Below are positions 13,050 to 54,710 of a stretch of 55,232 nt of DNA, piece after piece. The stretch comes from Cladosporium halotolerans (Eukaryota): positions 1 to 55,232 of the forward strand of contig NW_027191511.1 of the NCBI RefSeq assembly GCF_011745625.1, in the 5' to 3' direction. The notes beneath the pieces were generated by a model. It saw only the letters and a program-made list of their open reading frames with translations, had not been told where the DNA came from and did no database searches. The first letter of the stretch is position 1. The number at the start of each line of letters is the position of its first letter. Both the position numbers and the translations under genes were made by a program.

Positions 13050-14497
13050 CTAACGTACATAAACAGGGCTCGCTACCAACGGCGATTGTCTTGCGGGTGA
13101 TGCATGGGCTTCTGTGAGCTCATTTGGAGGACGAATTTTGAAGATTTGTAGCGGCACTGCAAGACGGAGACGCACTGCTGTTGCTCCGTGCCTACAGCCC
13201 TCTAGTTGGAGCTGAATGGTGTGTCGACGCGAGAGGTAAGGTGTCGAGAATGTTGTGGATCCCTCAGTGAGTTCCGTAAGAGGGAGGAAGAGACGCTCGT
13301 GTCTGTGCCAATGAGACTCAAACTCAATAGGAGCCGTCGTGAGGATGAATCTACGCTTTCGCACAGATTGCGAGCCGGTAGGGCATGGAGCAGCGCCTCC
13401 ACCATCGCACGACGTCCAGTCTCGCAGGACCAATTTGATCGTCCGCAAAGGCGTACTCGTTGCGGCAGCAGCGATATAAGGGTCGGCAATGGCGTCCTGC
13501 AGAGTCGGTAGTTCGTATAAAGGCACTACAGATACAAATGTGGTGGATTCCAGCAGCCAAGATATTGTCACGTGCATTTCGTCAGGCTGTTTCGAAGCTT
13601 CATCGGCACTCGTCGAAGCTTGATGTAGATGAAAGAGAGCATCAAGGCTCATATAGTGCTCCTTCCCTTGCTGTCGAGAAGTACCCAGGTTCATGACCTT
13701 TGGTTCGCGTATCGTAACAGCTAGGCGCATTCGAGACTGAGCCGAGCAAGGTCTGCTGAACCGCCAGGTTTTGATTATCGGCGGGCTCCTGATGCTCTTT
13801 CCGTTACTGCATTTGTACTCGCCAGGAAAATCGTCGACCGATACGGGTGGTGGATTTTCGAGTGAGACGTTGGTTACACCGATGTCGACAAGGTAGCAGA
13901 GAATCTCACGCTCTCCTTGGAACAGCTGTGCCACGACTTGGTAGCGCACAGACCCATGAGCTCGTGAGCTGGTACTATTAATTCGAAGCCGTCGTGTGCC
14001 AACAGTGAGCGAAGGAGGATAGCAAGTGGCATGACCCAGAAGTCCAGTGCAGCCTTGAGACATGGGCGTTGGGACACGAAAAGTAAAGGGTATTACCAGT
14101 GACCCCTCGTCACCTGCCATATCGACCCTTTCCACGCTAGCGTGTGTATCGACGAGCTCGAGGAACTGGGTAGCAACGTTAGCCATATCAGTGGTCGCAT
14201 TTTGGGGACCTTACAAGTTGTTCTAAGCTGCGCATCAGCACCAAACCCGTCGCCGAGATGCCGTAGGTAACACTGGTTTCCAGCTTTCCTGTTTGATGTT
14301 AATCCACAGATCACATGATCATGAAGTTACTCATATCACTGACCAGTTAAAGTGAGCTTAACGGCGTGTGAGCGGCATGCTTGGTCGCGATCAATGTGAA
14401 CGGTACCGCACACCAAGCCAGGTAAATCGAAGACCGGCGCTGCGTTGCCCGTGGAGTGGCGCCCGTCGAAGCTGAAAGATATCGGTGAGCCTGCCAT
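13050..14497 (-). CDS. Arrestin-like (arrestin_N fold) protein
   Basis: Exon 1 PVFDLPGLVCGTVHI..VKLTLTG; two short introns; IPFTFRVP..YPPSL..VRYQVVA; TFSTPYLSRRHTIQL; C-terminal SPVYVR (PY-like). Confidence 0.7.
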
Positions 14498-19370: not shown

Positions 19371-20787
19371 ATGAAGATGACAGGTTCGAAGAGCCATCGT
19401 GCATACCAGCAAGTCGTCCTTTATATCAGATGCCTCTCCTGGTACTGCGACTGACAAATTCAGCAGTATCGGCGAATGGATGCCCATCGACCACCGCATG
19501 CAGCGCGAGTGGCTGAAAAGCGTGATCGAACATGTTGACAGAACGCCCAACGATCTCCACCCAGTGCTGGAAGACTTCAAGTACCTGATCGAGCATGACA
19601 CGAGATTGTTTATACTGGTGCAATCGATGTTCGAACAAATCCCAAACAAACACCCCTATGATGCGGACCCATCAGCGGAGCACAAACAAGTGCGGGATTA
19701 CAAGCATATGCTCGAGCTCCTAAATCACTTCCTCACAACTGCGCCGCGCTGGAGTAATTCTTGCAGCCAGGCCGGTGTGGTGGGATTGCCCATCAACGCT
19801 GCTTTGGACTGGCCTATGGGGACCCTCAGTGGCTTCGCTTTTTTCTTGGATCCGGCTGTTAATGCTTTCTTCAAACAGCTTCTGAACGCGTGGGGTGAGT
19901 TCTTAACCTCTCAACAATCAGCAAAAGAGGCACTCGGCAACGACGATGCAGGCTGGTTTGGTCGGTCTGGCAAGAAGCACCTGACCGCCACCGTCAACGC
20001 CGCATCTTTCAGCAACAAGCCCGTTGACTTCGAAATACTGTTTCACTGCGATCCCGCGAAGCAATACCATGGCTACACCTCGTGGGATGATTTTTTCACG
20101 CGAAGGTTCCGCTTCGAGAATGGCATACGCCCAGTGGCAGCCCCGGAAGACGACCGTATCGTCGCCAACGCTTGTGAAAGCAAGCCATACAACGTGACAT
20201 ACGATGCGCAACTACGCGACCGTTTCTGGATCAAAGGACAGCCTTATTCGATTGGCGATATGCTTGCACACGACCCACTCGCAGACAGATTCCACGGGGC
20301 AGCTGTGTACCAAGCATTTCTTTCCGCCTTGAGCTATCACCGCTGGCACGCGCCCGTCAGCGGGAAAGTGCGCAAAGCCTACGTAAAGAACGGGACTTAT
20401 TTCTCGGAGCCGCTTTTTCAAGGACTCGCTGAGCCATTAAATGCAGCTAATGGTATTATCGATGAGTCCAACGAGACGACATCTCAGGGGTACCTCACAG
20501 CCATCGCAACGCGTGCAATCATCTTCATACAAGCAGATAACCCCGATATCGGGTTGATGGCGTTCATCGGCGTTGGCATGGCGGAAGTCAGCACCTGCGA
20601 GATCTCTGTTAGAGAAGGACAAAGAGTGCAGAAGGGTGAAGAGATCGGCATGTTCCATTACGGCGGAAGCACACATTGTCTGCTGTTTCGTAAGGACACG
20701 GCAGTGCGGGACTTTCTGAAACCTGGCCTTGAACACAATGTCCCAGTGAGGTCGCAGATAGCCGTGGTCGATCGAAGCGACGGATAG
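19371..20787 (+). CDS. Phosphatidylserine-decarboxylase-family enzyme (PSDC domain, PsiD-like pyruvoyl decarboxylase)
   Basis: GLPINAALDWPMGT, SWDDFFTRRF, NACES, IKGQPYS, YQAFLSALSYHRWHAPV, GMAEVSTC, FHYGGSTH self-cleavage motif. First exon inferred through a GC-AG intron 19409-19463. Confidence 0.9.
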
Positions 20788-21026
20788 GAAATGCAATCGA
20801 AAATCTGTGATTGACAGGACCACTAGCGATTGGGAATACCATTTTGCGAATTTGAGTCATAACGTTAACGCAGGATGCGAGTTCACGCCACTAATGTGGG
20901 CGTTTGGTAAATGGCGATGGTAAGTAAAGAATATCCAGATCAATACATGCCCAATGCTAGGCAGAGTTGATGCTTATGCTCTTACTTAACCCAACGAACT
21001 CGGTCATTGCGGCCACATGTGCGCAT

Positions 21027-22227
21027 TCAGAGCTGCACTTGACGCTGCATCCTCACATTTCTCCAAAATTCGGCGACCTCGTCTGGCAGCAGTGTATCCA
21101 TAACCGAGATTTCCCAGCTGTCGCGTTCAGCGGTCACACGATCGTGGAAAGCGCACATCATGCGGTACCGATCCCCAACACCAGCAAAGTGTAGCATCAT
21201 ATCCCCTTTTACCACATGATACCTGTTCCAAGCCTCATCTTCGTCTCGCGGATACGAGTTGAACCATCTTGGAGGAACGTAGATGGAGCCACTGGCAAAA
21301 AGAGGGTCCTGTATCATTCGCTCCATGGCACTCTGTTCTGTGAAAGGAAGCTCCTCATCTGGTTTGTAGGTGGGGTAGGAAAGAACGTTGGTGAGCATGT
21401 TCACACTCCAAGCGTTGACGCGCATTGCAAAAACGCCGTTGTTCAATCCATTCCAGTCTTCCGTCACTAGCAGGTTAATACCGTCTAGGTCTTGGGGTGG
21501 TAGAAAGGTTTCCACGGCGATCAAAGGATTGATGACGAGAGTGTCGGCGTCAAACCACTATTCAAGATGTAAGTCAGTCACACCGCCATAGTTCCTCGTG
21601 GATAGTTTTCTGATCAGATCGGGATGTCTGAATCTGCTATGGAGGCATCAGAGCTGGAGAGTATGTTGAATGTTGGAACATACTGCGAAATCGTTAGGAT
21701 ATGTTTCATGTGACAGAGTATCTATCCTGGAACTTACCCATCAACCACTGCAACCGTGCGTCTTCCGGTTTTGTCATTTCGTGCAACAGCACGGCTAACA
21801 ACGCGGCCTCTTTACTCCATAGACCATCGAGCAGTGGGCGGTCGAGTACGAAGACGGGATAATGGTGTATCTCACTATGTCTTAAATGGGTGTCGAATGC
21901 CGGAGACCGTCCTGTACCGTATTTCCCGTGCATGACAGTGCACTTGCCAACCCGAGACGAACCGGAGGATGCGTGGTTGCTAATAGGCAAGACATCTGAT
22001 CCAAGATGGACGACTTGCGGTGCAAGAGCGGCGAAAGGTAAGTGGAGGGTCGCGAGGGAACCCAATGGTGATGGAACGGATCTTGCCGTCCAAGTCGCAT
22101 TGCAGACATCATGCGTAGTGGTGAGCGTGTACTCGGTCCATGCCTCCTTACCAATGACGAAAAGTACGCATGCGAATAATGCATAAAACGAAATTTGAAG
22201 AAAAGTCTCGCGTTGCGTTCGTAGCAT
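21027..22227 (-). CDS. Glycosyltransferase family 34 (GMA12/MNN10-like galactosyl/mannosyltransferase)
   Basis: N-terminal TM; GLWSKEAALL; LQWLM|WFDADT (DxD); FLPP; DWNGLNNGVF; EQSAM; WFNSY; HFAG. Intervening sequence 21738-21558 is a nested intron. Confidence 0.9.
21558..21738 (-). other. [D1,2] spliceosomal twin intron (stwintron)
   Basis: Minus strand: ATG|G-GTAAGT..CCTAAC..CGCAG-TATGT..ACTGAC..TAG|TGG. Removing internal intron 21737-21683 rebuilds donor GTATGT and gives an in-frame M|WFDAD. Confidence 0.8.
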
Positions 22228-22890
22228 CTTGTCAAACGACTGACAAAGTTCTGGTTGTGTGGCCCTCGAGAGGATTTGCTTCTGGGACGGGGGGGCGGGA
22301 TATCATGTGAGACGAAAGGATCATAAATGGGACTTGATTGCTTTTTGCATCAGAACACTTATCGCCTTTGGTCCATAGCTCACAACATCATGAGAAGTCG
22401 GAACCCGTATTGTGAGACGCCAAGTGCACGGTAATACGCGTCCTTGACGAGTCCCACTTGGCGACAAGAAGACCCATTGGTTTCTTGATCGTTTGCATCG
22501 CACTACGCTCTAGATAAGGCTTGAGCGAGGTATTGAAAAGCATAAAACCAGATAGAGACAGGATAGAGAAGGAGCGCAAAGTTCTCTCGCACTGTGACTT
22601 GGAACAATGGCACAGTAGAGTAGGTGACGAACATTCAACGACAATAGTATTCAGTTGATGATGGCATGAGGTAGCGCCTGGCAAAGGGCGACACTCTGTA
22701 GACTTGGTCTGAGGAAGTGGCATGATACTGAGTAGCAGCTCGGCTGCCCTACCGTAGGCACGCAAAGTTTGACTGCGCCACCGCGCACCCGCTGTCGATC
22801 GCGTTGCTGCCCGGGCAGAATTGCCTGGACACACCAAGGCTCGTGGACGGTCGACGGTGACCCGCAGTAACCCCCTTCCACTCCGGTTCG

Positions 22891-24903
22891 ATGAGCTTGC
22901 AATACGCCTACTTGCCGCCACCATCACAGTGCAATCCTCTGCGTACACTGCACATCTTTTCTCTCGTGCTAGTAAATTTCCTGCACCACTGCCCCTCAAC
23001 AGATATGACGGTAGAGTGGGAGACTGGCTGTCACACGCTCGGGCGTCAGAGGCTGGTTGCCAGCATGACCGCAAGCATCTCCGACCGGCTCCCTACGGTT
23101 CTGAGCGCCGTCCTGCAATCACATCAAATCACGCCCGGTGAACCTTTCCGTCTTCAGTGCCAGCTTTCCATTGATGCCCTGGCCAGTGCTACAGGTCACA
23201 AAACAGCATCGATACCTGTGGCATCATTTGATATCGGGCATCAACTCTCGCCGCCTCTGCAAGGATCGCAGGTGGGAAGCATCCATCAGACGAACGCTTC
23301 CAGCCCTCCATTCTCGGAGCCTCCTGTCGAGCAGTTGATTGATAAAGGGGCCTCCCGCCCGAACACCGACCATCTCCCTTTAACGAAGACTCGAAAGCGT
23401 GGCCGCTCAGCAATAGAAGCAGCCGAGGAAAGCACGCCTGCACGACAGACCAAGAAATCAAGGCAACAGACGCTCTCCACACACAACACTGCCCCACAAG
23501 AGGTGTCCTTGAAGTCAAACGACGGTGCGTTGGACAAGCTGATCACTGGCGTTTGGCAAGCTCTCTTTTCGGACACCAAACTCGATCCCAGCGAATTCTC
23601 AATATATGTTCAGACAATAGCGAACTCTGAAGAGCTTAAGCTTCTCGCCGGCTCCGAAATAGAGGAAGCTGATATCACGACGGGCGACAGCACTGTTGCT
23701 GCGCGGAGCCTCTTCAGTCGTGTCAATCTGATTGCCCGAAGAGTCAGTCAGACGAGCAGATTCTGCCGCGCGCTGGAGGTTAGCGTCCAAGCACGTTGGG
23801 TGCAATGCTTCGATGACCGCGTCCAAGTGCTATCGCGGTCCCACACGCCAGAGGTAGCCAAGAAGATGACAATGGGTGAGGCCTGTTCCGACTTTGGCTG
23901 GTCTGAGAAAGAATTGCGGAACAAAATGTGCATCTGGCGCGGTTATCAGCACATCGCAAAATGCGGAGGGTACGTCACCCTCATATTTGCAGGACCTGGG
24001 CTATATAGGTTTTGCAAGTACCGACTTTCCTTCGACGACAAAACTTTCGCGGCACTCCACGGCTTACGAGCGGCATTTGAAGTCGCGGCGGACACTTTGC
24101 AGCCTTGCTGGAGGCGTGTACTGGGATTCCTGGGCATGTCACAGGAGCGGAAGTATACAGGGCATCTGCACGATTGGGTCATTCGCGGGCCTGGCAATGA
24201 GCCTGTTCCGCTTGCGACCACGTACCATCAGTGGGACAGGAATTTTTCGTACCGCCATATCGAGGGTAGCGTCATTGACCAGGACGCATGGGGCGATCAC
24301 GATCCTCGAAGTACATGTCGGCCTGGTGCGTCAGAAGCGCTAAGCTGCGAAGTCTGTCATGCACGTCAATCTGATGACAGCACTCAGAACGGCTGTAGGT
24401 GCTTTCCTGCCTTGTATGGTCATTCGCACGCAAGATTGCCGCCGGTCCAGATTATCCAAACGTCCAGCGGCAAAAACAACGGGCTCTTCGCATGTCTACC
24501 CTTCGAAGCAGGTGAGGCAGTGGGAGAATTCGTCGGCGAGCTCACCACTGGCATCACAGGCCTGGACGTCATGTTTGGCCAGACAGAGGATGCGTCTTAC
24601 CAAATTTGGCAAGGAAGGTCAGGAAACTACACACGTTTCGTGAACCACTCGTGCAAGCCGAATGCGCAATATGAACACTTCAACTGGCGTGGTACGCAGC
24701 GCATAGTGCTTGTCTCGCAAGGGATTAAAGCGAGTGACGAAATAACAGTCGATTATTCTGACGTGTATTGGAAGGTCAGTCCGTCCAAAATACTTTATGT
24801 CTCCTGTGGTAGAGCTTGACGATCTTACTGACTTCTACGCCAGGACTTACGCAAGAAATGTCTTTGTGGCCAGACTGAGTGTAGGTATCGAGATCGCGCA
24901 TAG
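22891..24903 (+). CDS. SET-domain protein with post-SET Cys cluster (start 22891 or 23005)
   Basis: NNGLFA..GEFVGEL, GNYTRFVNHSCKPN, EITVDYS. Intron 24775-24843 followed by CLCGQTECRY*. Confidence 0.88.
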
Positions 24904-32864: not shown

Positions 32865-35800
32865 CAGTATCTCCGTCATGACCTCGCTTCTCGGCTTCGT
32901 CGAATTCGATGCGTTAGCGGTCGTCGAACCATATATCTACCGGCATCCCTACACAGGTCTACCCACGATAGCACAAGACCGCCGCTGGGAGGTGTTTAGG
33001 CCGATGACTACAAGACCCGATGGACACGCAAGGCATGCTTTTAGAGCAGCGATCTGGGTGAATAGCCGGTGCAGGGCCACATAGATTCAAGCTGATAGCT
33101 ACGATGTAGCAGCAGTACTCGTACAGCTGAAGAGGAGGAGGCTACTGCTAGTCGTCGTGTTACGAAGCTCGAGCAGCAGACACAGAAGCAGAAAGGGAGC
33201 GGGACCTCGCAGCCACGCTTTTGACTTTGAAAACAGTGATACAGAAGTCACAACAAGAAGTAGGGAGGGAGCAGCTTGAGATCATGATCTGTGCAGACCT
33301 CAACAGATACCACGTTTTGTGGGGAGGCTATCACCAAGTGAGGGCAAGGGAAAGGAGAGGCGAGGGGGACGCCATCGTCGACTTTATACAAGAAACGGGC
33401 CTACACTCCCTCCTCCCTGCTGGGATTGTCACATGGGAACACCAATCCATGAACATCACATCTACAGTGGATCTCATCTTAGGCTCTAAGGCCATACAGA
33501 AAGAGCTGGTATACTGCAGGATACACAGCCCAGACCATGGCTCCGATCATAAGCCGATAGAGATCGAGGTCAATGTCAACTCGTCTATGGAAGCATCAGC
33601 CCAGGGCAAACGACTTTATAAGGAAGCGGACTGGAAGGGTATTAGGGAAAAGATCCACAACAAGATTGGAGACGGAAGAGTGCTGTTCCGGACTACCAAT
33701 ACTCACCTTCTAGACTTTGCAGCTTCGTTCTTCACAAGCCAGATCAATGCAGTTCTTGAGGAGGAAGTGCCTCGGGCAAAACCGTCTCCCTACGCCAAGC
33801 GGTGATGGACTCGAGAGCTGTCGACGTTACGGGATGATTTCACTATGAAGCGCAATCGAGTCACAACCTTGAGGCGCCGAGGCGATGACACTACGGGGGT
33901 GAGGCTAGCAGCCCACATGGCGCGAAGATTGTACCATGACGCGATTGACCGACAGAAGAAAGAGCACTGGAAAGAGTTCCTTGACGACCCAGAGAACTTC
34001 TGGAAAGCTGCTAGGTATACGAAAGCAGCGAATGTAGCAGTGGCCGTCCCCGATCTCGTGGTCGGAAACCGAAAGTACTGTACAGACGAGGAGAAGGCGG
34101 ATCTGTTGATGTCTACGTTCTTCCCGGAACCACCCGACCTATCTGAGTCTGAGGAAAGTCAACGACAGAATAGGTGCCGGCGAAATAAGTCGAGCTGGCC
34201 ACTACTGACAAAGCACGAAGTGGAACGAGCCATCTTTCGAAGTAGTCCAGATAAAAGCCCAGGGACCGACGGAATCACTTTCTGAGTCTGGAGGGAACTA
34301 TTGCCAGTGGTGGGAGACCATATCCTATGGCTATACTCCCTTTCTCTCGATCTAGGGCATGTGCCGAAGGAATGGAAGATTGCGAGGATTGTCGCGATTA
34401 GGAAGCCTGGGAAAGCAGACTATACGGTGCCGAAGGCCTTTAGACCGATCTCACTACTGCAGACTCTTGGCAAGGGCCTAGAGGCGGTCGTAGCAGCACG
34501 AATGTCCTACCTGACGGAGAAGCTTCATCTATTGCCAGAGAACCACTTCGGCGGGAGGCCGAGAAGGTCAGCAGAACACGCACTGAACGTCCTAGTTGAG
34601 CGGATATACCAAGCGTGGAGGAAATACAAAATCCTGACCTTGATCTCGTTCGACGTCAAGGGAGCCTTTAATGGAGTCCACTCGGAGGTGCTTATTCAAA
34701 GGCTGAATGACCGCCGTGCGCCAGAGCAAGCCGTTCGGTGGATAGCAGATTTCTGCAAGGGCAGAATAGCAAGAGTTGTAGTAGGGAGATATGAGTCAGA
34801 AGAGAAGAAGATTGACTTCCCAGGCATACCTAAGGGGTCGCCGTTATCACCGCTGTTGTATATCTGGTACAATGCGGATCTTGTCGATCGGAAGATCGAT
34901 ACCAAAGGGGGCGCCTTAGGGTTCATTGATGACTTCAACGCGTGGGTCACAGGGGTGGACGAAGAAGAAACGACGAGGCGCGTCCAGGAAGAGATTATCC
35001 CACACGCGAAACAGTGGGCGAAAGAAAGCGGAGCCATCTTTGAGGCGGACAAGACGTGTCTGTTCCACTTCACAAGGAAGCAACAGCAAGACGACTCCAG
35101 GCCAGTGTCGTTCGACGGGGTCCGAGTCCTTCCGCAGAAGTCGGTCAAAGTCCTTGGATTGACTCTCGATAAGAAGCTGGGGATGGACGAGCATATTGCC
35201 CGAGTCGTCCGAAAAGGGACGCAAGCGTGCTTATCACTGCAAGCTATTAAGGGCATGAGGCCGACACAGCTTCGTCAGCTGTATCGTGCGTGTGTAGTCC
35301 CGATCACGGACTACGCCGCATCGTCGTGGTACGGGCCAGGCAAACCTGGAGTTGTCAGACTCACAAATGCACTTGACAAAGTACAAAAATTGGGTGCTAG
35401 AGTGATACTCAGGGCGTGGAAAAAGGTAGCGCTGCCGGTCTTGGAAGCAGAGGCTTGTCTGGAACCCACCGTGGTACGCCTACTCCGAAAGACGTCGAAA
35501 CATGCAACAAAGGTCCTGTCGCTACCGACGGACAATCCAATAAGGCAAGCTATACCATGCACATTGAACGTAGCCAGACAGAGGTCGCCATTAGACGCCA
35601 CGATCGCCGCTTGCAAGAAATATCTCAAACCGGAGCGGTCGGTAGCTCCGCTAGGAAATCCGGCATGGTTGCATCCACCCTGGATCAGCCACGGATGGAG
35701 AGTAGTTGTCCAGAGTAGGGAAGAAGCGACGAGGGAGACAGGACTGGCTGTGGCAGCTCGAGCCATGTGTCTCTACACAGACGCATCAATTGGAAAACGG

Positions 35801-36860
35801 CTGGCAGCAGTTGCAGTCGTCCAGAGGATAGGCATGCAAACAAAGGTCGTCCGACAAGAGGTCATAGGGTGGGCGAAGACGTGCTCAGTCCTGGCGGCAG
35901 AACTAGCCGCGATTGCGATGGCACTGGAGTACGCTAGGGACCATATCCGCCAGACCCTGATCGTTCTGTTCTCGGACAGTCAGCAGGCCTTGAAGGTTAT
36001 ACAAAGCGGGAGCATACACGGATCCAAGAGAATGCTCCTATACAGGATCTTCGAAGCCGTGGCTGAATTGGTCAAAAGACAAACCGATGTTAGGTTCAGA
36101 TGGGATCCTGCGCACGAAGGAATTGTAGGAAATGAGATAGCTGACGAGGCAGCTCGGGAAGCATCAAGTCAAGGCGGCAGGCCAACGGCGCCAGCACTAG
36201 AGAGGGTGCGGGAGGCCGAAGGCATTATCCGCTTGATGAGTCGGGCCAGGAGTGATAATCCGACCCCGTTCGACTCCACAGGGCTTGCCGGTCAGTATAC
36301 GTGGAAGATGGATCAGGCCTTGCCGGGGAGGCACCCTCCGGCTGTACGGGTCGCTGACCTCAGATCAAACGGCAATTCTCATACAGGCACGGACAGGGCA
36401 CTGTCGACTAAACCAGTACCTTGCGAGGGGCGGTCTGGTTGGAAGTGCTCAATGCCAGTGCATGCAAGGTGAGGAGACTATTCGCCACGTGATCCTAACG
36501 TGCCCGCTGTGGGCGGATGCAAGAAAGGAACTGTGGGCAGTTGCTAGAGAAAGGGGAGGGGATGTTCCCTTCCTCCTAGGCGGATGGAGACCAAGAAAGA
36601 CAGCAAAGGTCGATTGCTAGATGGTCCAAAAGAGAAGTGGATGCCGGACTTGAAGGTGGTTAAAGCAACGATATGGTTTCTTGAACAGACTGGAAGGCTC
36701 ACCTACCGCCCACGGGCAGTAGAAGTCTAGTAAGATTGGACAACTCTCTTTCTGAGCAAAGGCGTTTGAATTAGTATTGGACTAGCAAGGTCACTCTCTA
36801 GGGACGGCTCATACGGTTACCGTGAATAGCCTGACAGAATCAATCAAATCAAATCAAATC
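32865..36860 (+). mobile_element. Tad1-like LINE, ORF2 only (APE endonuclease, RT, RNase H, CCHC), inactivated
   Basis: ADLNRYHVLWG, STVDL, GSDH (APE); KSPGTDG, FRPISLL, FDVKGAF, PKGSPLSP, FIDD, LGL (RT); YTDAS, AELAAI, FSDSQQAL, GNEIAD (RNase H). Stops at 33082, 33803 and 34283 plus frameshifts; (AAATC)n tail; candidate TSD AAACCATAT (32856) / AAATCATAT (36856). Confidence 0.95.
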
Positions 36861-42479: not shown

Positions 42480-42733
42480 GGCAGTCGATCAAGGATGGCA
42501 CGCACACGAAGGCTACTGCAACCCTAAGCTAACGCTAACCCAAATTAAGATCACAGCAGATCTTCCAGGATGCAATACCGGAATAAGTGCACTCGCGATC
42601 CGTTCGGGGTTGCCATTTGTGCGTGTCTGGCAAACTCGGCGGAAATCCGACGCATTCCAGCTTGCATGATAGAATTGGTGGCGAGGGACTAGCAGGACGC
42701 AATACCTCCTTCTACTCATGTTGAGCGGATCAG

Positions 42734-44740
42734 TTGATATCACAGCCCCGCATACAAGCTTTATCCAATGAGAGAGCACAGCTGGGATGGGCCGGTGAAG
42801 CATTGCAAAATATAACAGCCCAAACCGGAGACATCTGCAGCCATTTGATCCGCAACGAAACCGAAAAGGCCTGGAAAAAGGACGCAATACTTTTGATGAT
42901 GAACATCAAGGTCCAAAATCAGTGCTGTCAAAGTCAAGAGCTAGATCAGTCAACGCTGGTCACCAAGCTATTCGAAATCGAAAGATTCCAGACCCCAAAT
43001 CATAAGTCCTTGGAATGGATGGAAAACCTTTCATGTTTGTGGAGGAACTCAGCCCAACCACGAACGTTACAACTGGGGTCTAATCCATGCAAAAGCGTTG
43101 AAGGAGACTATGTCGCTGTGTCGTATTCATGGGCAATCACTCCTGGGCTCGAGTCTGCATCTAGCGGCGGATTCACCATCACCGATCCAAAAGGGAACCA
43201 TCTTCGCCAAAGTATCATCCGCAATGAAGTGCTCGAGAGGGTGGTTCGTTATGCGGACTTGAAGAGAATTTCAAGAATCTGGATCGACCAAGAATGTAGC
43301 CCACAAGATGATCACAGGAAGAAACAAATCGCTATGAATTCGATGGATCTCGTCTACCATCATAGCAATCATTCAGTCGGACTCCTGGCGGTAATTTTAC
43401 GAACTCAGGGCGAAGTCAATAGGCTGCAACAACTTATGTTGGGTCGTTCGATCACACAAGACGGTGATGGCATGTTTCCGACTCTGGCCTCTCCTGCGGA
43501 TTCCCACGCCTCCATCGGGGTATTTGATGTCCTTCATCGTCTCTATTCAGACCGTTGGTGGACCAGAGCTTGGATTTTCCAGGAAGAGTATCTCTCATCA
43601 ACAGCCATGCATCTTCTTGTTCGCCGCGCGACTTGTACCGCCTTACGCCATGAATTTGGATCTTTGCAGGACGAAATATGCCTCGAAGCAATCACTTTCC
43701 GCAAGCAGGCGACCCTCTTTCTGCTCGCTTTTAAGCGTGAGGGCCATCAGAGATACACCAGAAAATGCGTCAGGATGCTCAAGCGTTTCGGCAGATACGA
43801 AGTACAATATCACTTCCAGCACGACTCCATGAGGAAAGCGATGTCTCCAAGGATTTTCGCCGATATCCAGCGAAGAAAGATCACAGATCCTCTCGATCGT
43901 TTGCCGATTGTAGCGAACAGCTGCAACTATGCAATACGTATCGCCGCACGACAATCACTCAGTGGTATATACAGTGTGGGCTTGTGCTCGCTTGCAATGT
44001 TTCTTCTCAATGGGGAACTTCTGCGAAATTCACGAGATATCAAGAAGCTTCCAACAGAGATGGACTGTGCCAATTATCTTCAATACATTTCGTTCAACAA
44101 ATTTGAACCTCCTGTTGCGAAGAAACAACTGTCCTATCTGAAGGGGTGTCGATTCCACAAAGTGTTTCTAAATCGTCAAGGACGAATGACTAGTGGCCAT
44201 CTGTGGACCATCACAGGCACATTGCTGCCCTCTGCATGGCCATCCCCGCCGCGAAAGAGTCAAAAGTTCCATCGGCTTGGTCTGAACGACTTCCAGCGCG
44301 ACAGTCTTCATCAGCTAGCTGATATACTTCGAGCTGTAGGCTGTGTACGACCAGCTTCAGCGGTAGAGAAGTACCTCGACATTGACTCCATCTGTGCCAG
44401 ACCTACTGCAGCAAAGCGCCACATGGATCTCATGGCAGAGTCAGTAGTGGAAGCGATGCGCGTTGGGCTGCCTTTACAAGTGGCTTGCACACAAAATCCG
44501 AGTAGTGCTTGTGGGATATTCGTCGATTGTCGAAGTTCCCTAGAGATATTTACCTCCTGGCATGCTGGCATTGGACCTGATGTTCGATGGCGAGAGACTC
44601 ACGTATCACTTGGGGTGGAAATACAGGGCGCCGGGAGTGCGCCAATTCTCGACACAGTCCGATGGATAAATGGCCTTACATTTTTGGCAAAGCGCGATGA
44701 GACGCCAGTCATCTTTAAGTGGCCAAGGGCATGGGTGTGA
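42734..44740 (+). CDS. HET-domain (heterokaryon incompatibility) protein; first ATG at 42896
   Basis: YVAVSYSW, IWIDQEC, AMNSMDLVY, WWTRAWIFQE, DRLPIVAN. Confidence 0.88.
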   Translation: MISQPRIQALSNERAQLGWAGEALQNITAQTGDICSHLIRNETEKAWKKDAILLMMNIKVQNQCCQSQELDQSTLVTKLFEIERFQTPNHKSLEWMENLSCLWRNSAQPRTLQLGSNPCKSVEGDYVAVSYSWAITPGLESASSGGFTITDPKGNHLRQSIIRNEVLERVVRYADLKRISRIWIDQECSPQDDHRKKQIAMNSMDLVYHHSNHSVGLLAVILRTQGEVNRLQQLMLGRSITQDGDGMFPTLASPADSHASIGVFDVLHRLYSDRWWTRAWIFQEEYLSSTAMHLLVRRATCTALRHEFGSLQDEICLEAITFRKQATLFLLAFKREGHQRYTRKCVRMLKRFGRYEVQYHFQHDSMRKAMSPRIFADIQRRKITDPLDRLPIVANSCNYAIRIAARQSLSGIYSVGLCSLAMFLLNGELLRNSRDIKKLPTEMDCANYLQYISFNKFEPPVAKKQLSYLKGCRFHKVFLNRQGRMTSGHLWTITGTLLPSAWPSPPRKSQKFHRLGLNDFQRDSLHQLADILRAVGCVRPASAVEKYLDIDSICARPTAAKRHMDLMAESVVEAMRVGLPLQVACTQNPSSACGIFVDCRSSLEIFTSWHAGIGPDVRWRETHVSLGVEIQGAGSAPILDTVRWINGLTFLAKRDETPVIFKWPRAWV

Positions 44741-47913: not shown

Positions 47914-50900
47914 TCAATCCCTCATCGTCAGGTTCCCGAAGTCCCGCTCTATGTCACCGGCGTGCTGGACGCCAGCTGCAGGCTGATGACTTGATCCTCC
48001 GATTGGAGCGTTGCACTGAGGGCAGCATGCCGTCTGCATGGGCATGCCACATTCGCCTATCGTGAATGGATGCCCGTTTTCGCACCTGTACCAATGCCCA
48101 GTACCACTGAACTCCCCTTGCATGGCAGCGACTACCATCCTCATCTGACTCTGGTACCCAGCTTCGTGTAGAAGACGACGGACATCCTCGCTCTCAGTCA
48201 GAACGCTGCTCGTTTGGCCGGGATAAGTCTTGCACAACACCTTGGCGCTGTCTAGGTGCTCCTCGGCGGTGCGCTTGATCCCCTCAAAAGGTCTGCCGGT
48301 ACCACTACCATCCCGGCTTTCCATAACTTCACACTCGAGCCCTGCAAAGTGGGCCCAAAATATATGTCCCTCCGTTTGTTGAAGGATGTTGGAGGTACTC
48401 TTAGCGAAGCTCACCAAAGCCTCGCAAGAGTGTCGATCTCTAGAGAAGTCAACTTCCAGTGATCGGTCCTGCCGATGTCGCTGCTCATGAAGCACGCCAA
48501 TGAAATCTGACACTGCCACGAGCTCGCATCTTATCGCCAAAGCGGTAGCCAAAAGTGATCCGCGTGTTTGGACGAGAACATGGTCAAAATCGAAGGCATC
48601 GATGGTCTCTCCAGTGTTGAAGCGACGCCGACGGAGCGCTTCAACAATGTCATGCACACGCCGAAAGGGTTGCTCTTCAGCTGCAGTCTTCTGAAGGAAG
48701 ACCTCGATCTTCTTACGTAAGTATGACAATGGGCGATAGCGCTGACCGACTCCAGACAACCTGCCAAGTACCTCGACGTGAGATCCGTGAGCCATTACGA
48801 TGTTGCCTGCAGGGAGAACAACTTTCAGTCGTGACTCGATCAATCGTCCTTGCAGAGCTTGCATCGATTCCGCGTGCTGTAGATGTTCTCGATTGGACCA
48901 AGCGATGAACTTCTTTGTAGACTCATCCAGAAGCGCACGTCGGACAATGCGACCGTAGCGAGACACAAGTCGAAGGGAGCTTCTGCAATCTGGACACGTC
49001 TTGATCTCTTCGTATGAGAAAGCTTTTGACTGGCCGATGAGAGCGGTCGGCATACCAGTCGCAGCATCCAATTTGTAGTAGTCCGACATGGCCATGAGGC
49101 CGTCTAGACTTTCGACGTTGAAGACGTGGCCGCAAGGCAAGAAAATGCAAGGGCTTTCTGACAAATCGATTTCAGCATATGAGCTGAGCATGATAACATC
49201 GGCTCGAAGACTCTTGATCTCATCAGGAGCACAGGTCTGGCAATATCTCTTGCTTGGACATTCAGCGCCGCAAACTGAGGGGCACTGATGGCCGCAATCC
49301 AGTAGGTTGGTACATCGTTGTGAGCACGGGACCCAGTCGCATGGAGCGGCACACGGCATGTTGCACTTGACATGCGGGCAGCAAGACGCACACTCTTCTT
49401 CGGCACACGGAGCACACGGTTCGCTGCATTTCTTCATACATCTCGCGTGGCTACACTGAACGTCGCAGACTTGATCGCAAAGCGGGCATGCTTCATCACT
49501 GTGGCAGGGAGCAGTGCAAGAGTGCTTGCAATTGGTAAAATTGCGCCCGCATTGCTGCCTGCACTCGCCGTGTTCCTCTTTGATGATGTTTTGACCCTCG
49601 CGCAAACGGCACTTGCAACACTTGTCCTTGCAAGTGTGACCGCAAGGCTGCAAGGCGCCACAAGTGGCGGTACAGACGTAAACCGGAGTGTTGAAGTCGA
49701 GAAAACACGGCAGTGAAACTGTGTGATCACAGCCAGGAATTGTACGCTCGACCTTCACGCTGCATTTCGCTTGTTCCGGGTGTTGATATTGCCAACATGG
49801 CAAACTGTCAACATGGTGTCCGCATGGCAACTCCACGTCGATGTTGCGGATAGTGACGGTGCATTGTTTGTCGCAGGGACGGCCGCACTCATACTGACAG
49901 TTGTGATTGCAGCCTTTCTTCACCCTGCTGCACGGTTTCGTACAGTAGACCGCTGTATGAAGACCATCTGAATGGCACTTGTTGATACACGAATGACCGC
50001 ATGGAAGTCGCCGTCCGCAAAGAATATCGCACCCGGCCTCTGGTGAAACTCTGGAAAAGTCATCAGGGGTGGTGACTTGAAGTAGCGTGTCCGGATGGCG
50101 GGGACAGCAAAGCTGGAGGTCCCTGCCAACATTGCCCTTTTTCCTGAGCATATCTAATACGCTGCCCCACATGGGCACGTGAGAGGATGTCTCGGTGTTG
50201 CCGATAATGTACATCCCGTGCTGCGCTCGGGATAACAGGACGTTGATACGGTTTGAAGTCCTCAAGAAGCCACACTTGCGTTGCTGATTGCAGCGTACCA
50301 GTGAGACAATAACCACCTTAGCCTCTTCGCCTCTGCCACAAATAGTCAGTTTTATACATGTGATAGCGTGTAAAGTTTGACGAACTGGAAATTGTCACAT
50401 GTGGCTAGCCGGAGCGATTGAAGCAAAGTACTCTTTCGCACTCCTAAGCGTGGCGGGAGGCGAGCCCTGGTGGCGACCTCTGAGGTCATCTCATCTCCGT
50501 TCTCTTTGTAATCGTGATCGTCGAGAACCAGTTCATCACTGTCTCTGTCGTTGATGACAATTTCGGCGAAGCCGCTCAAAGAGCATCGCAACTTTCTCAA
50601 CTGTCCGAGGTAAGGCGTCAGGACCGCGATATCAGAGGCTTCGTACACGCCTTGTCTGACCAAGTGCCTGACAAGCGCAAAAACAATGTCGACTTCGTAC
50701 TTGTTGGTGTGCGATGTGGTGTCGGAAGCTGCACTCTCTCCGTCTTCGAGGTGGCTGTGGTCGAGCCAGAAAAGCCTCTGCCGCATTCCAGAGACCCCTG
50801 GGTAGTCGGAAACCTGGGGAGAGTCCTGCAGATTCGGATACAACGTCGAACGGATGAGTGCCGAGATCGAGGGGTGCATGCGCCGCTGAACTTCGAGCGT

Positions 50901-53849
50901 GACATACGGGACGGCCGAATCTTCACCACCCTCCGGGCTCACAAGACGCTCGAAGAGTGAAACATCCAACTTGATCTGCGATCGCGGATTCTCGCATGAT
51001 AATTCGTAGTTTTGCGCCTTAGGCCTCAGCTGTTGATGGTCACCGATCAGTATCGCATGCTCGATGGAAGGAAGCAGCGCTGTCAGCATGTGTGCTTCCA
51101 AGACCTCGCCTGCCTCTTCTACGAGCAGTACTTTACTGTTGAGCCTGCGTAGGAGGTTGAGGTTGCGTGCCAGTCCCGAAGTCGTGACACCGATGACATT
51201 CGCATTGGTGAGTACGCGAAGGTCAACTTCAGCACGGATTTGATCGAATCTGGCCTTCGCATCTCCATACGCCTTGAGGTTTGCAAGCAGAGACCTCTGG
51301 ATCGGTTCGGCAATAGCCTCTTTCCATGTCATGTGCAATCGTTGTCGCTGTACTTTCGTGAGTGAAAAAATGTCGATGCTGCCACCATTTTGAGGCGTTG
51401 ACGGCGACTGCAGACTACCATGAAGCCACGCCGATAGGCCCTTGGCCGCTTGTTTCGACCTCACTACTCGAAATCCACTTTCGTCAATCTCAGGCTCGGA
51501 GAGCTGAGAATGGTACGCTGGATATTCCTTCTCGAGGAATGACAGCATCGATGACTCTGAATGCGCATTACGTAGCTGAGTGAGATTGTTGTTCATAGAC
51601 CTTCCGTACCGCTCAAGCTCGTTCTTGCATTGCCATCGTTCTCTCTTCTCCAGCTTCGTGAGACATTCGTTTCGCGCAACAGTTCGGAGATTCAGGGGGA
51701 TCAAACGCTCACTCTTAGAGCGTGAGCCGATACGGACAATCTGTTTGACGCTAGCATCGACCAGATGCTCGAGGATTTGATCAAGCGCATGGTTCGTGAA
51801 GGTGACGCAGAGAACCGGACCTAGACTTGCAGTGGCTTTGTTCGCCATGAGAACTTTCATCAATGCTACACCAGTGTAGCTTTTCCCTGTACCAGGAGGC
51901 CCCTGGATCAGTGCCATCGACTGAGATAAGGTTGATATCAAGGCTTGGGCCTGCGCGTTGTCGAGTTCTGTCTGGTTGCTGAGCGTACTTGCATCCATGG
52001 GGCAGTCGATGTCCAGCTCTAATTTCTGCCCTTCGGAAGACAGAGTCGATAGGTTGTAGCGAAAGTTTCGCTTTTTCGTGTAAGCCGGTTTGCCGAATCT
52101 CTTACCTTGCTGGGCATCTTCAGTTGGAGCGAGTAGCTCGGGAAATGGCAAGTCTTTCGACTGGGTCATCTGCTGCAAGGCAACAAGGGTGTGTTGAAAT
52201 GCTGGCAACAACACTCCTGGGAACTCTAATAGTAAGAATGAAAGCTCAGCACCCGACTGCCCGTGACCGAGGCCGAACCGAAAGAGCACGGTTTCAATGT
52301 CTGCTTCAGTATGGTTCGCCAGCTGCACAACGGCATAAGCGACATTGCCATCTCCAGAACGTGGATAACGCTTCTCAATGGGACTCTCCGTCTTCGTGAT
52401 ATTCGATTCCGATCCAGTAGGAAGTGCGGCAGTAGCTACAGTCAAGAAGACGGCTACTTGATCGGATCCGAGCAACATGATCAAGGCTTCCGAACCAAGT
52501 CTCTTGGATTCATCCCACCACTCCTGTCGCTGTGCTGCGGTCTTGCCGTCAAGTTCGTGAGGTTGGGAAAACTGGAGGACACAGAGCATCCCTTTACGCT
52601 CATCGAACTCAGCATCAACAAGCCGGACATGGTGATAACTGTGAGTCCGAGCCCCAGATTGCTTGGTGACCATGCTCTTCACTCGGTGATTGTGGATACG
52701 ATCGAGTTCAACTTTCGCTGCGTCACGTAGCTGTCCGACGGTATCCTCACGGATCAGGCGGAATTGTCTGTCCAAGAGACCGATTACGCCTGGTAAATGC
52801 CATGTCGAAGGATCGCTTCCCGGTAAATATTCTGCGCGGTCGCCCAAAATTTCCCCTATCGTGGGCAGAATCTGGATGTCTTCGATATTTTCGAAGTCAT
52901 TGTCATGACGAGCACCGTGCTCAGACAGATGACCTGGCTGATCTACCGATAGCTCGAACGTGGGTCTTGGTTGATGTGCCTCATCTTGCTTCTTGTTTTC
53001 CACAACCTTGATGCTTCCACCTAAACCCAAGCGTAGGCACATCTTTCTGTGGTATTTCAGAGAGTTGCCACTCAGCGCGTGATCGACCGTGAGCGCAATC
53101 ATAGTCTCTACGACAGCGCGCAGATCGTCATTGACCTGTGCAGTAGTATTGGCCTCCAGCATTGCAGATAGTGCAATCAGACATCGCTCAAAGTCGGCTC
53201 CGGCCTGTTCATCATCGTACGTCAAACCGCGAATAACCGCTCCAAAGACCGATACTGAGCGACGACCGTTCACTCCGTAAAGGTAGTTGAGTAATGTGGC
53301 GTGCCGTGTTTCCAGGACCGAAGACGATAGTACGGTCTCGTGTGCGACGATGCGCATGAAGGGAAGAAGTTGCTCTTTGAAGACCACTTGTAGCGCATCA
53401 TCGATCAAGTCGCTCCAGTTTCGGTTCAGCATTTCGCCCAGACGAGCGAGCCCTCCTTCGCTTGACAGAGTTGTGATAACTTCCTGCACAGTATCGATGT
53501 TGTTGACAAGTGTCAGTGCTTGTTGTATGAAGCACGGAAATGCTCTTCCAAATGGCTGCGCCCTTTGGATGTCCCGTTTCTCTTTCTTGACGTCTAATCG
53601 CCATCGTACAAACTGATCATACGCCGAAGAAGCCGGACCGCTTTGGGCTCTATGATCTTGTATGGCGCTGCTTGTCTGCAAGATAGGGTTGTCGTGTGAG
53701 AATTTGCATTCGGGACCACGGCGACACTCTCCCTTTGCGAATTCGTGACAGAGTTTCTTTGGTGCTTCTTCATGACTGTATTTGCATGCTTTGCCAAACC
53801 GACAAGTGCCGCTTTGGAAGTACCGACATCGTTGGTTCTGTATCGCCAT
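47914..53849 (-). CDS. ZNFX1: ZNFX1-like SF1 (UPF1-type) helicase: 2 CCCH fingers, helicase core, NF-X1 zinc fingers, RING-like segment, C-terminal RZ finger
   Basis: CRYFQSGTCRFGKACKYSH; LDRQFRLIREDT; QGPPGTGKS; EEAGE; IGDHQQLRP; LTPYLGQ; DNFQ|GEEAK (intron 50385-50333); NVLLSRA; Cys/His repeats; GHWYRCENGHPFTIGECGMPMQTACCPQCNAPIGG. Confidence 0.92.
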
Positions 53850-54710
53850 ACTAGCATGAGATTGGTCCTATGTTCTTCAAGTTGGTTCAGAAGAAAAAGC
53901 GTGTGAAGAAAAGCAGTTGTGTCGGTGGGAGATTAGGGAGTAAGTAGATATGCTGTCGCCACTAATGACAAGCTAGTTACATAGTACAGCAGCATGGGCG
54001 GCCACTAGCGTTCAATTGTAGATGACTTCGGAGTTGCGTTCACTTGGCGGCGCAGCAATCCGGCGTCCCCACAGTATGCATGTGGTTGGCTTCTCGACTG
54101 AAGCTCGTGACACCAAGCTGTTATGGTGTTCATGCAAGAACACGCGAGAGTACCAGCGAAACTACCCCACGTCGCCACTGGTCACTCTCTTGATCTCGTG
54201 TGATTGTCGAGCCAGGTTTGCGTGTACTTAGGGTACGCAAATATTTGCCGAAGTTCACTGATTCAACTGTTGCTGGCAGTCACGCCGGATTGGAGTCTAG
54301 ATCAACGCGCACCACGTTTCAGCTATGTAGTTTCCGGCAAACGTGAAGAGCGCCACTAGAACCGGCCTGTCTTCTTGCGTCCGTTGTCGTGTGTCGAGCG
54401 AGATCACTTTTTGGACAGGTGCAGGTCCTCCCCGCAGCAAGCCTCCTGCGCTGACAGCGAGCTTCATGCATATGACAGCGTTTTATCACTCAGCTTGTTT
54501 GGACGTACATATGTTCCATGCATGGTGCATGTTAAAAGGATGCGTATATGAATCAATCATCAAGTAACGGAACAGAGACTAGTTCTAAAGTTTGTTGGAG
54601 TCACCGAGCTTTAACTCTGAGGCAGCTGAAGAAAGACTATCTCATCCTCTTGACGCATTTTGTTCAGATCATTCGGGAATAGGAACTCGCTACTGGCAAT
54701 TTATGACCAC

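Follow-up and report, generated by a model that had tools for sequence, protein, structure and literature searches.

The question raised by this locus is how an intact enzyme is obtained from a gene whose two exons are separated by a block that no single GT-AG intron accounts for. The gene, which encodes a predicted glycosyltransferase of family GT34, is located on the minus strand (22227-21027) of a 55,232-nucleotide (nt) stretch of contig NW_027191511.1; the whole stretch that was analysed is referred to as the window. The block comprises the 181 nt from 21738 to 21558 and is likely a [D1,2] spliceosomal twin intron (stwintron), in which a 55-nt internal intron is nested between the first and second nt of the donor of an external intron. 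Stwintrons lend themselves to testing how introns are defined and how new ones come about. The example described here has several useful properties in this respect: its mature junction is backed by transcript contigs, it is the sole intervening sequence of its gene, and it is absent from all of the 11 related loci compared.

Architecture of the block and its mature junction

The block lies in phase 0 between the codons of Met163 and Trp164. The features of the locus are as follows.

22227-21739, minus strand: exon 1, 163 codons, beginning with MLRTQRE and ending with LQWLM, as given by translation and by full-length homologue alignment
21741-21739, minus strand: ATG, the codon that ends exon 1
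21738, minus strand: lone G, the putative first nucleotide of the split donor of the external intron
21737-21683, minus strand: predicted internal U2 intron, 55 nt, GTAAGT..CCTAAC..CAG
21737-21732, minus strand: donor GTAAGT of the internal intron
21698-21693, minus strand: branch element CCTAAC of the internal intron, branch A at 21694
21685-21683, minus strand: acceptor CAG of the internal intron
21682-21558, minus strand: remainder of the external intron, 125 nt (126 nt with the G at 21738), TATGT..ACTGAC..TAG, with the 3' boundary taken from the contig joint at 21557
21682-21678, minus strand: TATGT, which would complete the external donor GTATGT
21578-21573, minus strand: branch element ACTGAC of the external intron, branch A at 21574
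21560-21558, minus strand: acceptor TAG of the external intron
21557-21027, minus strand: exon 2, 176 codons and a stop (21027-21029), opening with TGG TTT GAC GCC GAC (WFDADT)
21551-21543, minus strand: DxD motif (DAD)

The nested block had first been described in a sequence-only reading of the window, and its sequence and coordinates proved exact when the minus strand was read again. Removal of the whole 181 nt gives an open frame of 339 codons, in which LQWLM is followed directly by WFDADT. Translation of the unspliced RNA stops after WLMGKFQDRYSVT, removal of the 55-nt intron alone gives WLMVCSNIQHTLQL and then a stop, and removal of a single GT-AG intron (21737-21558, 180 nt) gives WLMVV with a stop at codon 166. 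Of the removals tried, only that of all 181 nt keeps the frame open. The frameshift caused by a single GT-AG intron and the stop that follows removal of the first intron, both predicted in the sequence-only reading, are seen in these translations.

Public sequencing runs were screened with the gene stretch, and four of them (X2, X6, X7 and X9), all consisting of assembled contigs rather than raw reads, were aligned to positions 20900-22400. One contig of X6 (organism D, study P5; depth 18.6) joins 21557 to 21739 with at most one differing exon letter, and one contig of X7 (organism A, study P1; depth 34.4) has the same joint with no differing exon letters. Both joints skip 181 nt, with ends CT..CC on the plus strand that correspond to GG..AG on the gene strand. 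The joint is ambiguous by one base, and shifting it gives no more canonical ends. The spliced contig of X6 (20938-22260, minus strand; 1167 nt including adaptor) ends close to both ends of the gene, with adaptor letters beyond, and the next contig upstream in X7 (22319 onwards) is separate and has a depth of 15.2 versus 34.4; the two spliced contigs therefore look like transcripts. Run X2 (organism B) contains the whole stretch unspliced in one contig of 4856 nt at depth 32, and X9 (share 0.48) has four short contigs, none of which crosses the junction. Run X1, which shares its sample with X7, contains a 1.00 share of the words sampled from the stretch, including those of the intron. At the protein level, none of 31 aligned homologues has a gap at the position between WLM and WFDAD. 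The predicted mature junction, which the sequence-only reading had put forward for checking in transcripts, is present in two runs of two studies.

Order of removal and alternative explanations

We infer that the block is removed in two steps. The spliceosome would first take out the internal intron (GTAAGT..CCTAAC..CAG, 21737-21683), whereby the G at 21738 would meet TATGT (21682-21678) and form the donor GTATGT of the 126-nt external intron. A second canonical reaction would then remove the external intron (..ACTGAC..TAG) and join 21739 to 21557. If the distal sites (21737 and 21558) were used instead, the G would stay in the mRNA and the resulting +1 frameshift would be non-productive; if the donor GTATGT that starts with the G at 21683 were used directly, 55 nt ending in CA would, by our reasoning, be left behind and could no longer be removed. 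Three canonical reactions would compete, and the nested order alone would give the enzyme. In stwintrons studied previously, the intermediate has been found by reverse transcription-polymerase chain reaction or in reads (PMC12403724; PMC5639578), and occasional mis-splicing at the distal sites has been reported (PMC12403724; PMC9024468).

The sequence of the block allows only one nested arrangement. AG followed by T or C occurs at positions 5, 55, 84 and 101 of the block. The first of these is inside the donor itself, and the last two would give GCTCTG and GCAGAT, which are not donors; position 55 (AG/TATGT) alone yields a donor, GTATGT. The [A2,3] alternative, a route open to some [D1,2] stwintrons, needs a downstream exon starting with G (PMC5639578), and the T at the start of exon 2 rules it out. 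The motif model would also accept a shorter external intron that ends with the TAG at 21639-21637 (branch element TCTGAT), but this does not give the observed junction and would read into a stop.

The block was compared with a published motif-search model for [D1,2] stwintrons (model A; PMC9024468, section 2.1). It agrees with the model in each of the five motifs and four spacings (33, 7, 99 and 12 nt), apart from one letter that is considered below. Both donors, GTAAGT and GTATGT, are on the published donor list. In the internal intron, the distance from the donor to CCTAAC is 33 nt and that from the branch element to CAG is 7 nt, and the length of 55 nt is above the minimum of 42 nt; in the external intron, 12 nt separate ACTGAC from TAG. 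With the one letter left free, the model matches the full 181 nt, and it does so at this site only in the window. With 0.3 matches of the relaxed model per shuffled window, the motif alone is weak evidence and not decisive. What is decisive is the motif taken together with the transcript junction, with its GG..AG ends, and the gap-free alignment of the homologues.

As a chance control, the interior of the block was shuffled 20000 times, with the first 7 and the last 3 nt kept. The hybrid site (AG/TRHGT) arose in 657 of these shuffles, the hybrid site and an inner branch element in 114, and the hybrid site with both inner and outer branch elements in 10. The window contains 38 GGTRHGT sites, three of which have a hybrid site within 181 nt, and a branch site is present too only in the block described here. 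Two further sites consisting of G and a donor followed by AG and TRHGT, at 13218-13272 (plus strand) and 41014-40891 (minus strand), have no branch element at a usable distance and are probably due to chance.

Several observations weigh against removal of the block as a stwintron. The intermediate, in which 21738 is joined to 21682, was not seen in the four runs, whose assembled contigs drop rare forms, and no protein with a tail derived from the intermediate was found among seven matches to exon 1 or three cluster members. The inner branch hexamer CCTAAC starts with C, whereas model A wants A, G or T, and the strict form of the model has no match in the window. The core of this element, CTAAC, is consensus, and the model leaves out less canonical elements on purpose, according to its authors (PMC9024468); the mismatch is a limit of the search heuristic and not the failure of a defining feature. 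As for the runs themselves, the kind assigned to X6 and X2 ("RNA?") is a guess, and that of X7 is given as "?". Additionally, 773 letters of the X7 contig (1867 nt), beyond 20924, do not fit the window, and the first 30 of these are absent from the whole window at up to three mismatches. The X7 contig may be chimeric or joined to a distant transcript.

The alternative that survives best is a one-step removal of the block as a non-canonical GG-AG intron, cut one base 5' of GTAAGT, with the CAG/TATGT sequence being a coincidence. The mature junction alone cannot tell one step from two, and the missing intermediate in the assembled contigs is compatible with a single step. GG-AG introns account for 20 of approximately 92,100 introns (0.022%) in the curated annotation of Ganoderma lingzhi (PMC11590231). 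Some of these, we conjecture, may themselves be stwintrons. A coincidence of this kind is infrequent, however, as only 114 and 10 of the 20000 shuffles contain the hybrid site with one or both branch elements, and the block contains the complete signals, properly spaced, of two ordinary fungal introns. Moreover, we know of no mechanism by which the cut would fall one base upstream of a perfect GTAAGT. Where GG.. blocks of this type have been studied in fungi, splicing took place in two steps and the intermediate could be detected (PMC12403724; PMC5639578). One-step removal is considered improbable, and removal as a stwintron is preferred.

A second alternative, and a very unlikely one, is that the joined contigs of X6 and X7 represent DNA of strains that lack the block, either through an intron-less allele or through loss mediated by reverse transcriptase. 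The uncertain kinds of the two runs leave room for this explanation, and an intron-less allele is conceivable since the relatives are all intron-less at the site. On the other hand, the X6 contig stops at both gene ends with adaptor beyond, while the unspliced X2 contig runs over 4856 nt. The separate X7 neighbour, with its different depth, is what would be expected of transcripts, the sample of X7 contains the whole stretch with the intron according to X1, and the exons are identical or differ by one letter.

The reality of the G at 21738 matters in that, with two Gs in the genome, the intron would be an ordinary GT-AG one of 180 nt and the mRNA would be the same. This G sits in a run of three (21739-21737) and is absent from the spliced contigs. 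In the unspliced form it is kept, as the X2 contig has no indel at 21738. X2 differs from the window only by T>C at 21735 (plus strand) and by a 2-nt insertion, GG, behind 22288, upstream of the start codon, and therefore represents a separate assembly. With the single-nucleotide polymorphism (SNP) at 21735, the internal donor reads GTGAGT instead of GTAAGT and remains within the consensus. The unspliced open reading frame (ORF) is also present in the protein collection, as three distinct proteins from five contigs: P0080 (three contigs), P0087 and P0088. Their tails, WLMG[K/E]FQDRYSVT, with the forms WLMGKFQDRYSVT and WLMGEFQDRYSVT, require all three Gs for their frame. P0088, with the GEF tail, shares the X2 SNP at 21735, and P0087 is an ORF extended upstream; these two proteins carry one or the other of the two polymorphisms of X2. 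The extra G is real, and the possibility left open for testing in the sequence-only reading, that it is an assembly error, did not hold up. An error in the three-G homopolymer, with a true 180-nt GT-AG intron that the spliced contigs would fit equally well, is hardly credible given the independent X2 contig that spans the site at depth 32 without an indel and the three proteins from five contigs, including the SNP variant P0088, that need all three Gs.

Origin of the block and relation to known stwintrons

A scan of metagenome contigs gave 11 loci that encode relatives of the protein. In 11 of 11, the DNA runs from the preceding codon straight into TGGTT.., with no intervening sequence at the site. 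Ten of the loci have a stop-to-stop frame of 335-379 codons, and the remaining one (L011) is cut by the end of its contig. Nine are at the level of orthologues (66-72% full-length identity), and two, L009 and L010, are paralogues (43% and 40%, respectively). The divergent SET-domain neighbour of the window's gene is also found at L002 and L007, and the convergent phosphatidylserine decarboxylase neighbour at L006; the contigs of these three loci (91.5, 37.4 and 30.0 kb) are genomic.

In a phylogenetic tree, the window protein belongs to a well-supported clade of six rows together with P0001, P0002, P0089, P0093 and P0094 (79-84% identity). P0093 (84%) and P0089 (80%), which are the nearest relatives, were each called as one complete ORF, on contigs 16.4 and 32.5 kb long. 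The collection calls the window's own gene as an unspliced ORF of 173 residues, which indicates that its gene calls do not splice; P0093 and P0089 are therefore probably intron-less at the site. Of six shorter, non-self matches to exon 1, four run through the junction and two stop before it, and none has a tail derived from the intron.

The absence of an intron at the site in all 11 related loci suggests that the block is a recent, lineage-specific gain in a Cladosporium-like fungus, with a single gain as the simplest history. It counts against this view that the state of P0089 and P0093 is deduced from ORF calls. Insertion as one ready-made unit is probably likelier than two gains that are nested to the nucleotide within the short period after divergence from relatives at 80-84% protein identity. 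With the block probably also absent from these relatives, the locus would provide a dated and clean case of intron gain outside Xylariales, the source of nearly all such cases.

A more far-reaching and rather doubtful proposal is that the block entered an intron-less gene as one unit and belongs to a family of [D1,2] stwintrons that is still propagating in a Cladosporium-like Dothideomycete. If this were true, the propagation of stwintrons would extend from Xylariales to a second fungal class and would be linked to the introner-like elements of Dothideomycetes. A blastn search for similar copies of the block in the 55-kb window and the 11 loci gave a best non-self E value of 2.3. The predicted fold of the block speaks against the proposal in being unexceptional (minimum free energy -37.9 kcal/mol, z = -0.57), with 58 of 200 shuffles folding as well. 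So does the terminal complementarity, which is limited to 6 nt, GTAAGT (21732-21737) and ACTTAC (21569-21574). ACTTAC overlaps the last two letters of ACTGAC, is followed by the final 11 nt of the block and is paired with GTAAGT in the predicted fold; we estimate that a few per cent of such blocks would contain a 6-nt complement of this kind by chance. Inspection of the borders by eye established no repeat that would represent a target-site or exon duplication. A likeness between the end of exon 1 and the start of exon 2 (AGTGGTT) was set aside, as it reflects two Trp codons.

[D1,2] is the commonest class of stwintrons: one strain, Hypoxylon sp. CO27-5, has 117 of them, the Hypoxylaceae together have more than 1500 (PMC9024468), and 288 sequence-similar stwintrons are reported from 14 Xylariales (PMC12403724). 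In view of these numbers, the statement in the sequence-only reading that few such introns are catalogued is out of date. A case from a Dothideomycete is the alternative oxidase gene of Helminthosporium solani (PMC5639578). A full-text search of the literature for stwintrons together with Cladosporium yielded only a general review in which each word occurs once, and supplementary tables may list further taxa.

The block resembles the unique [D1,2] stwintrons of Hypoxylon sp. CO27-5 and other Pezizomycotina (PMC9024468; PMC5639578) in that a G is followed by a complete donor. As in these stwintrons, the internal acceptor is followed by T and four letters that restore a donor, a branch element and an acceptor are present at normal spacing in each of the nested introns, the distal sites give a +1 frameshift, and the block is precisely absent from the mature transcript. 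It differs from the unique Hypoxylon stwintrons in its host, a Cladosporium-like Dothideomycete, and in its gene, a GT34 glycosyltransferase, and from the published search model in the first letter of the inner branch hexamer, C, on account of which the strict form of the model would miss it. Most of the unique Hypoxylon stwintrons are found at family-conserved positions (PMC9024468), whereas the block is absent from every relative examined. Its new, apparently lineage-specific position in an otherwise intron-less gene follows the pattern described for the sister stwintrons of Hypoxylaceae and Xylariaceae (PMC12403724; PMC8469720). Unlike the sister stwintrons, it has no similar copy in the window or the 11 loci, and unlike the symmetric stwintrons of Hypoxylaceae, it has no terminal inverted repeats beyond 6 nt and no unusually stable fold.

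In recursive splicing at ratchet points, which occurs in long introns of Drosophila and vertebrates, consecutive canonical reactions also remove one intervening sequence. There, the first reaction uses the donor of the exon itself, and the upstream exon is joined to a regenerated donor. By contrast, exon 1 of the GT34 gene would have no usable donor until the internal intron is gone. Introner-like elements of Dothideomycetes, reportedly described by van der Burgt et al. in 2012, are single introns that form multi-copy families and have stable predicted structures. The block differs from them in probably consisting of two nested introns, in the lack of copies in the window and the 11 loci and in its fold, with a z-score of only -0.57. 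It is similar to these elements and to introners (PMC9860276) in being, by the present evidence, a recent lineage-specific gain. What is new here is the host class, the gene and the recent origin; the mechanism was already known, and the case leaves knowledge of splicing itself unchanged.

The GT34 gene and its surroundings

Exon 2 matches the Pfam family PF05637 (GMA12/MNN10) with an E value of 7.5e-14 and 52.5 bits (cut-off 23), which corresponds to CAZy family GT34. PF05637 is also present in 79 of the 79 longer homologues retrieved with exon 2. Exon 1 alone has no Pfam match, and its product has an N-terminal hydrophobic stretch. The closest named homologues are Cladosporium proteins; the identity to the one from C. 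halotolerans is 66% for exon 2 and 57% for the entire protein.

In an alignment of 25 sequences, the first, third and fourth residues of WFDAD at the start of exon 2 (W, D and A) are invariant, and the fifth (D) is at least 90% conserved. The profile of these 25 sequences weakly matches the xyloglucan xylosyltransferases 5 and 1 (E values of approximately 6e-4 and 8e-4, respectively), and in the weak match to XXT5 (E approximately 6e-4) WFDAD is aligned with WMDSD. We take WFDAD to be the metal-binding DxD motif. The assignment to GT34 and the position of the block directly before the predicted catalytic DxD motif, as claimed from the sequence alone, are borne out by the Pfam match and by the alignment with XXT5.

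This position also has a practical consequence for annotation. Standard gene callers meet a frameshift or a GG-AG intron at the block, and the enzyme would be truncated just before the DxD motif. In the protein collection, the gene of this species is found only as an unspliced ORF of 173-206 residues.

The GT34 gene is flanked by a convergent phosphatidylserine decarboxylase gene (19381-20787, plus strand; PSDC and PS_Dcarbxylase) and by a divergent gene for a SET-domain protein (22861-24819, plus strand). A retroelement is located approximately 12 kb from the gene (34286-36472, plus strand), with a frame of 728 codons that contains RVT_1 (3e-24) and RNase H (5.9e-12) domains. Farther along, a HET-domain frame (42725-44740, plus strand) and a large helicase-like gene (47914-53867, minus strand), which has CCCH and RZ-type zinc fingers and is split over two open frames, are ordinary fungal genes.

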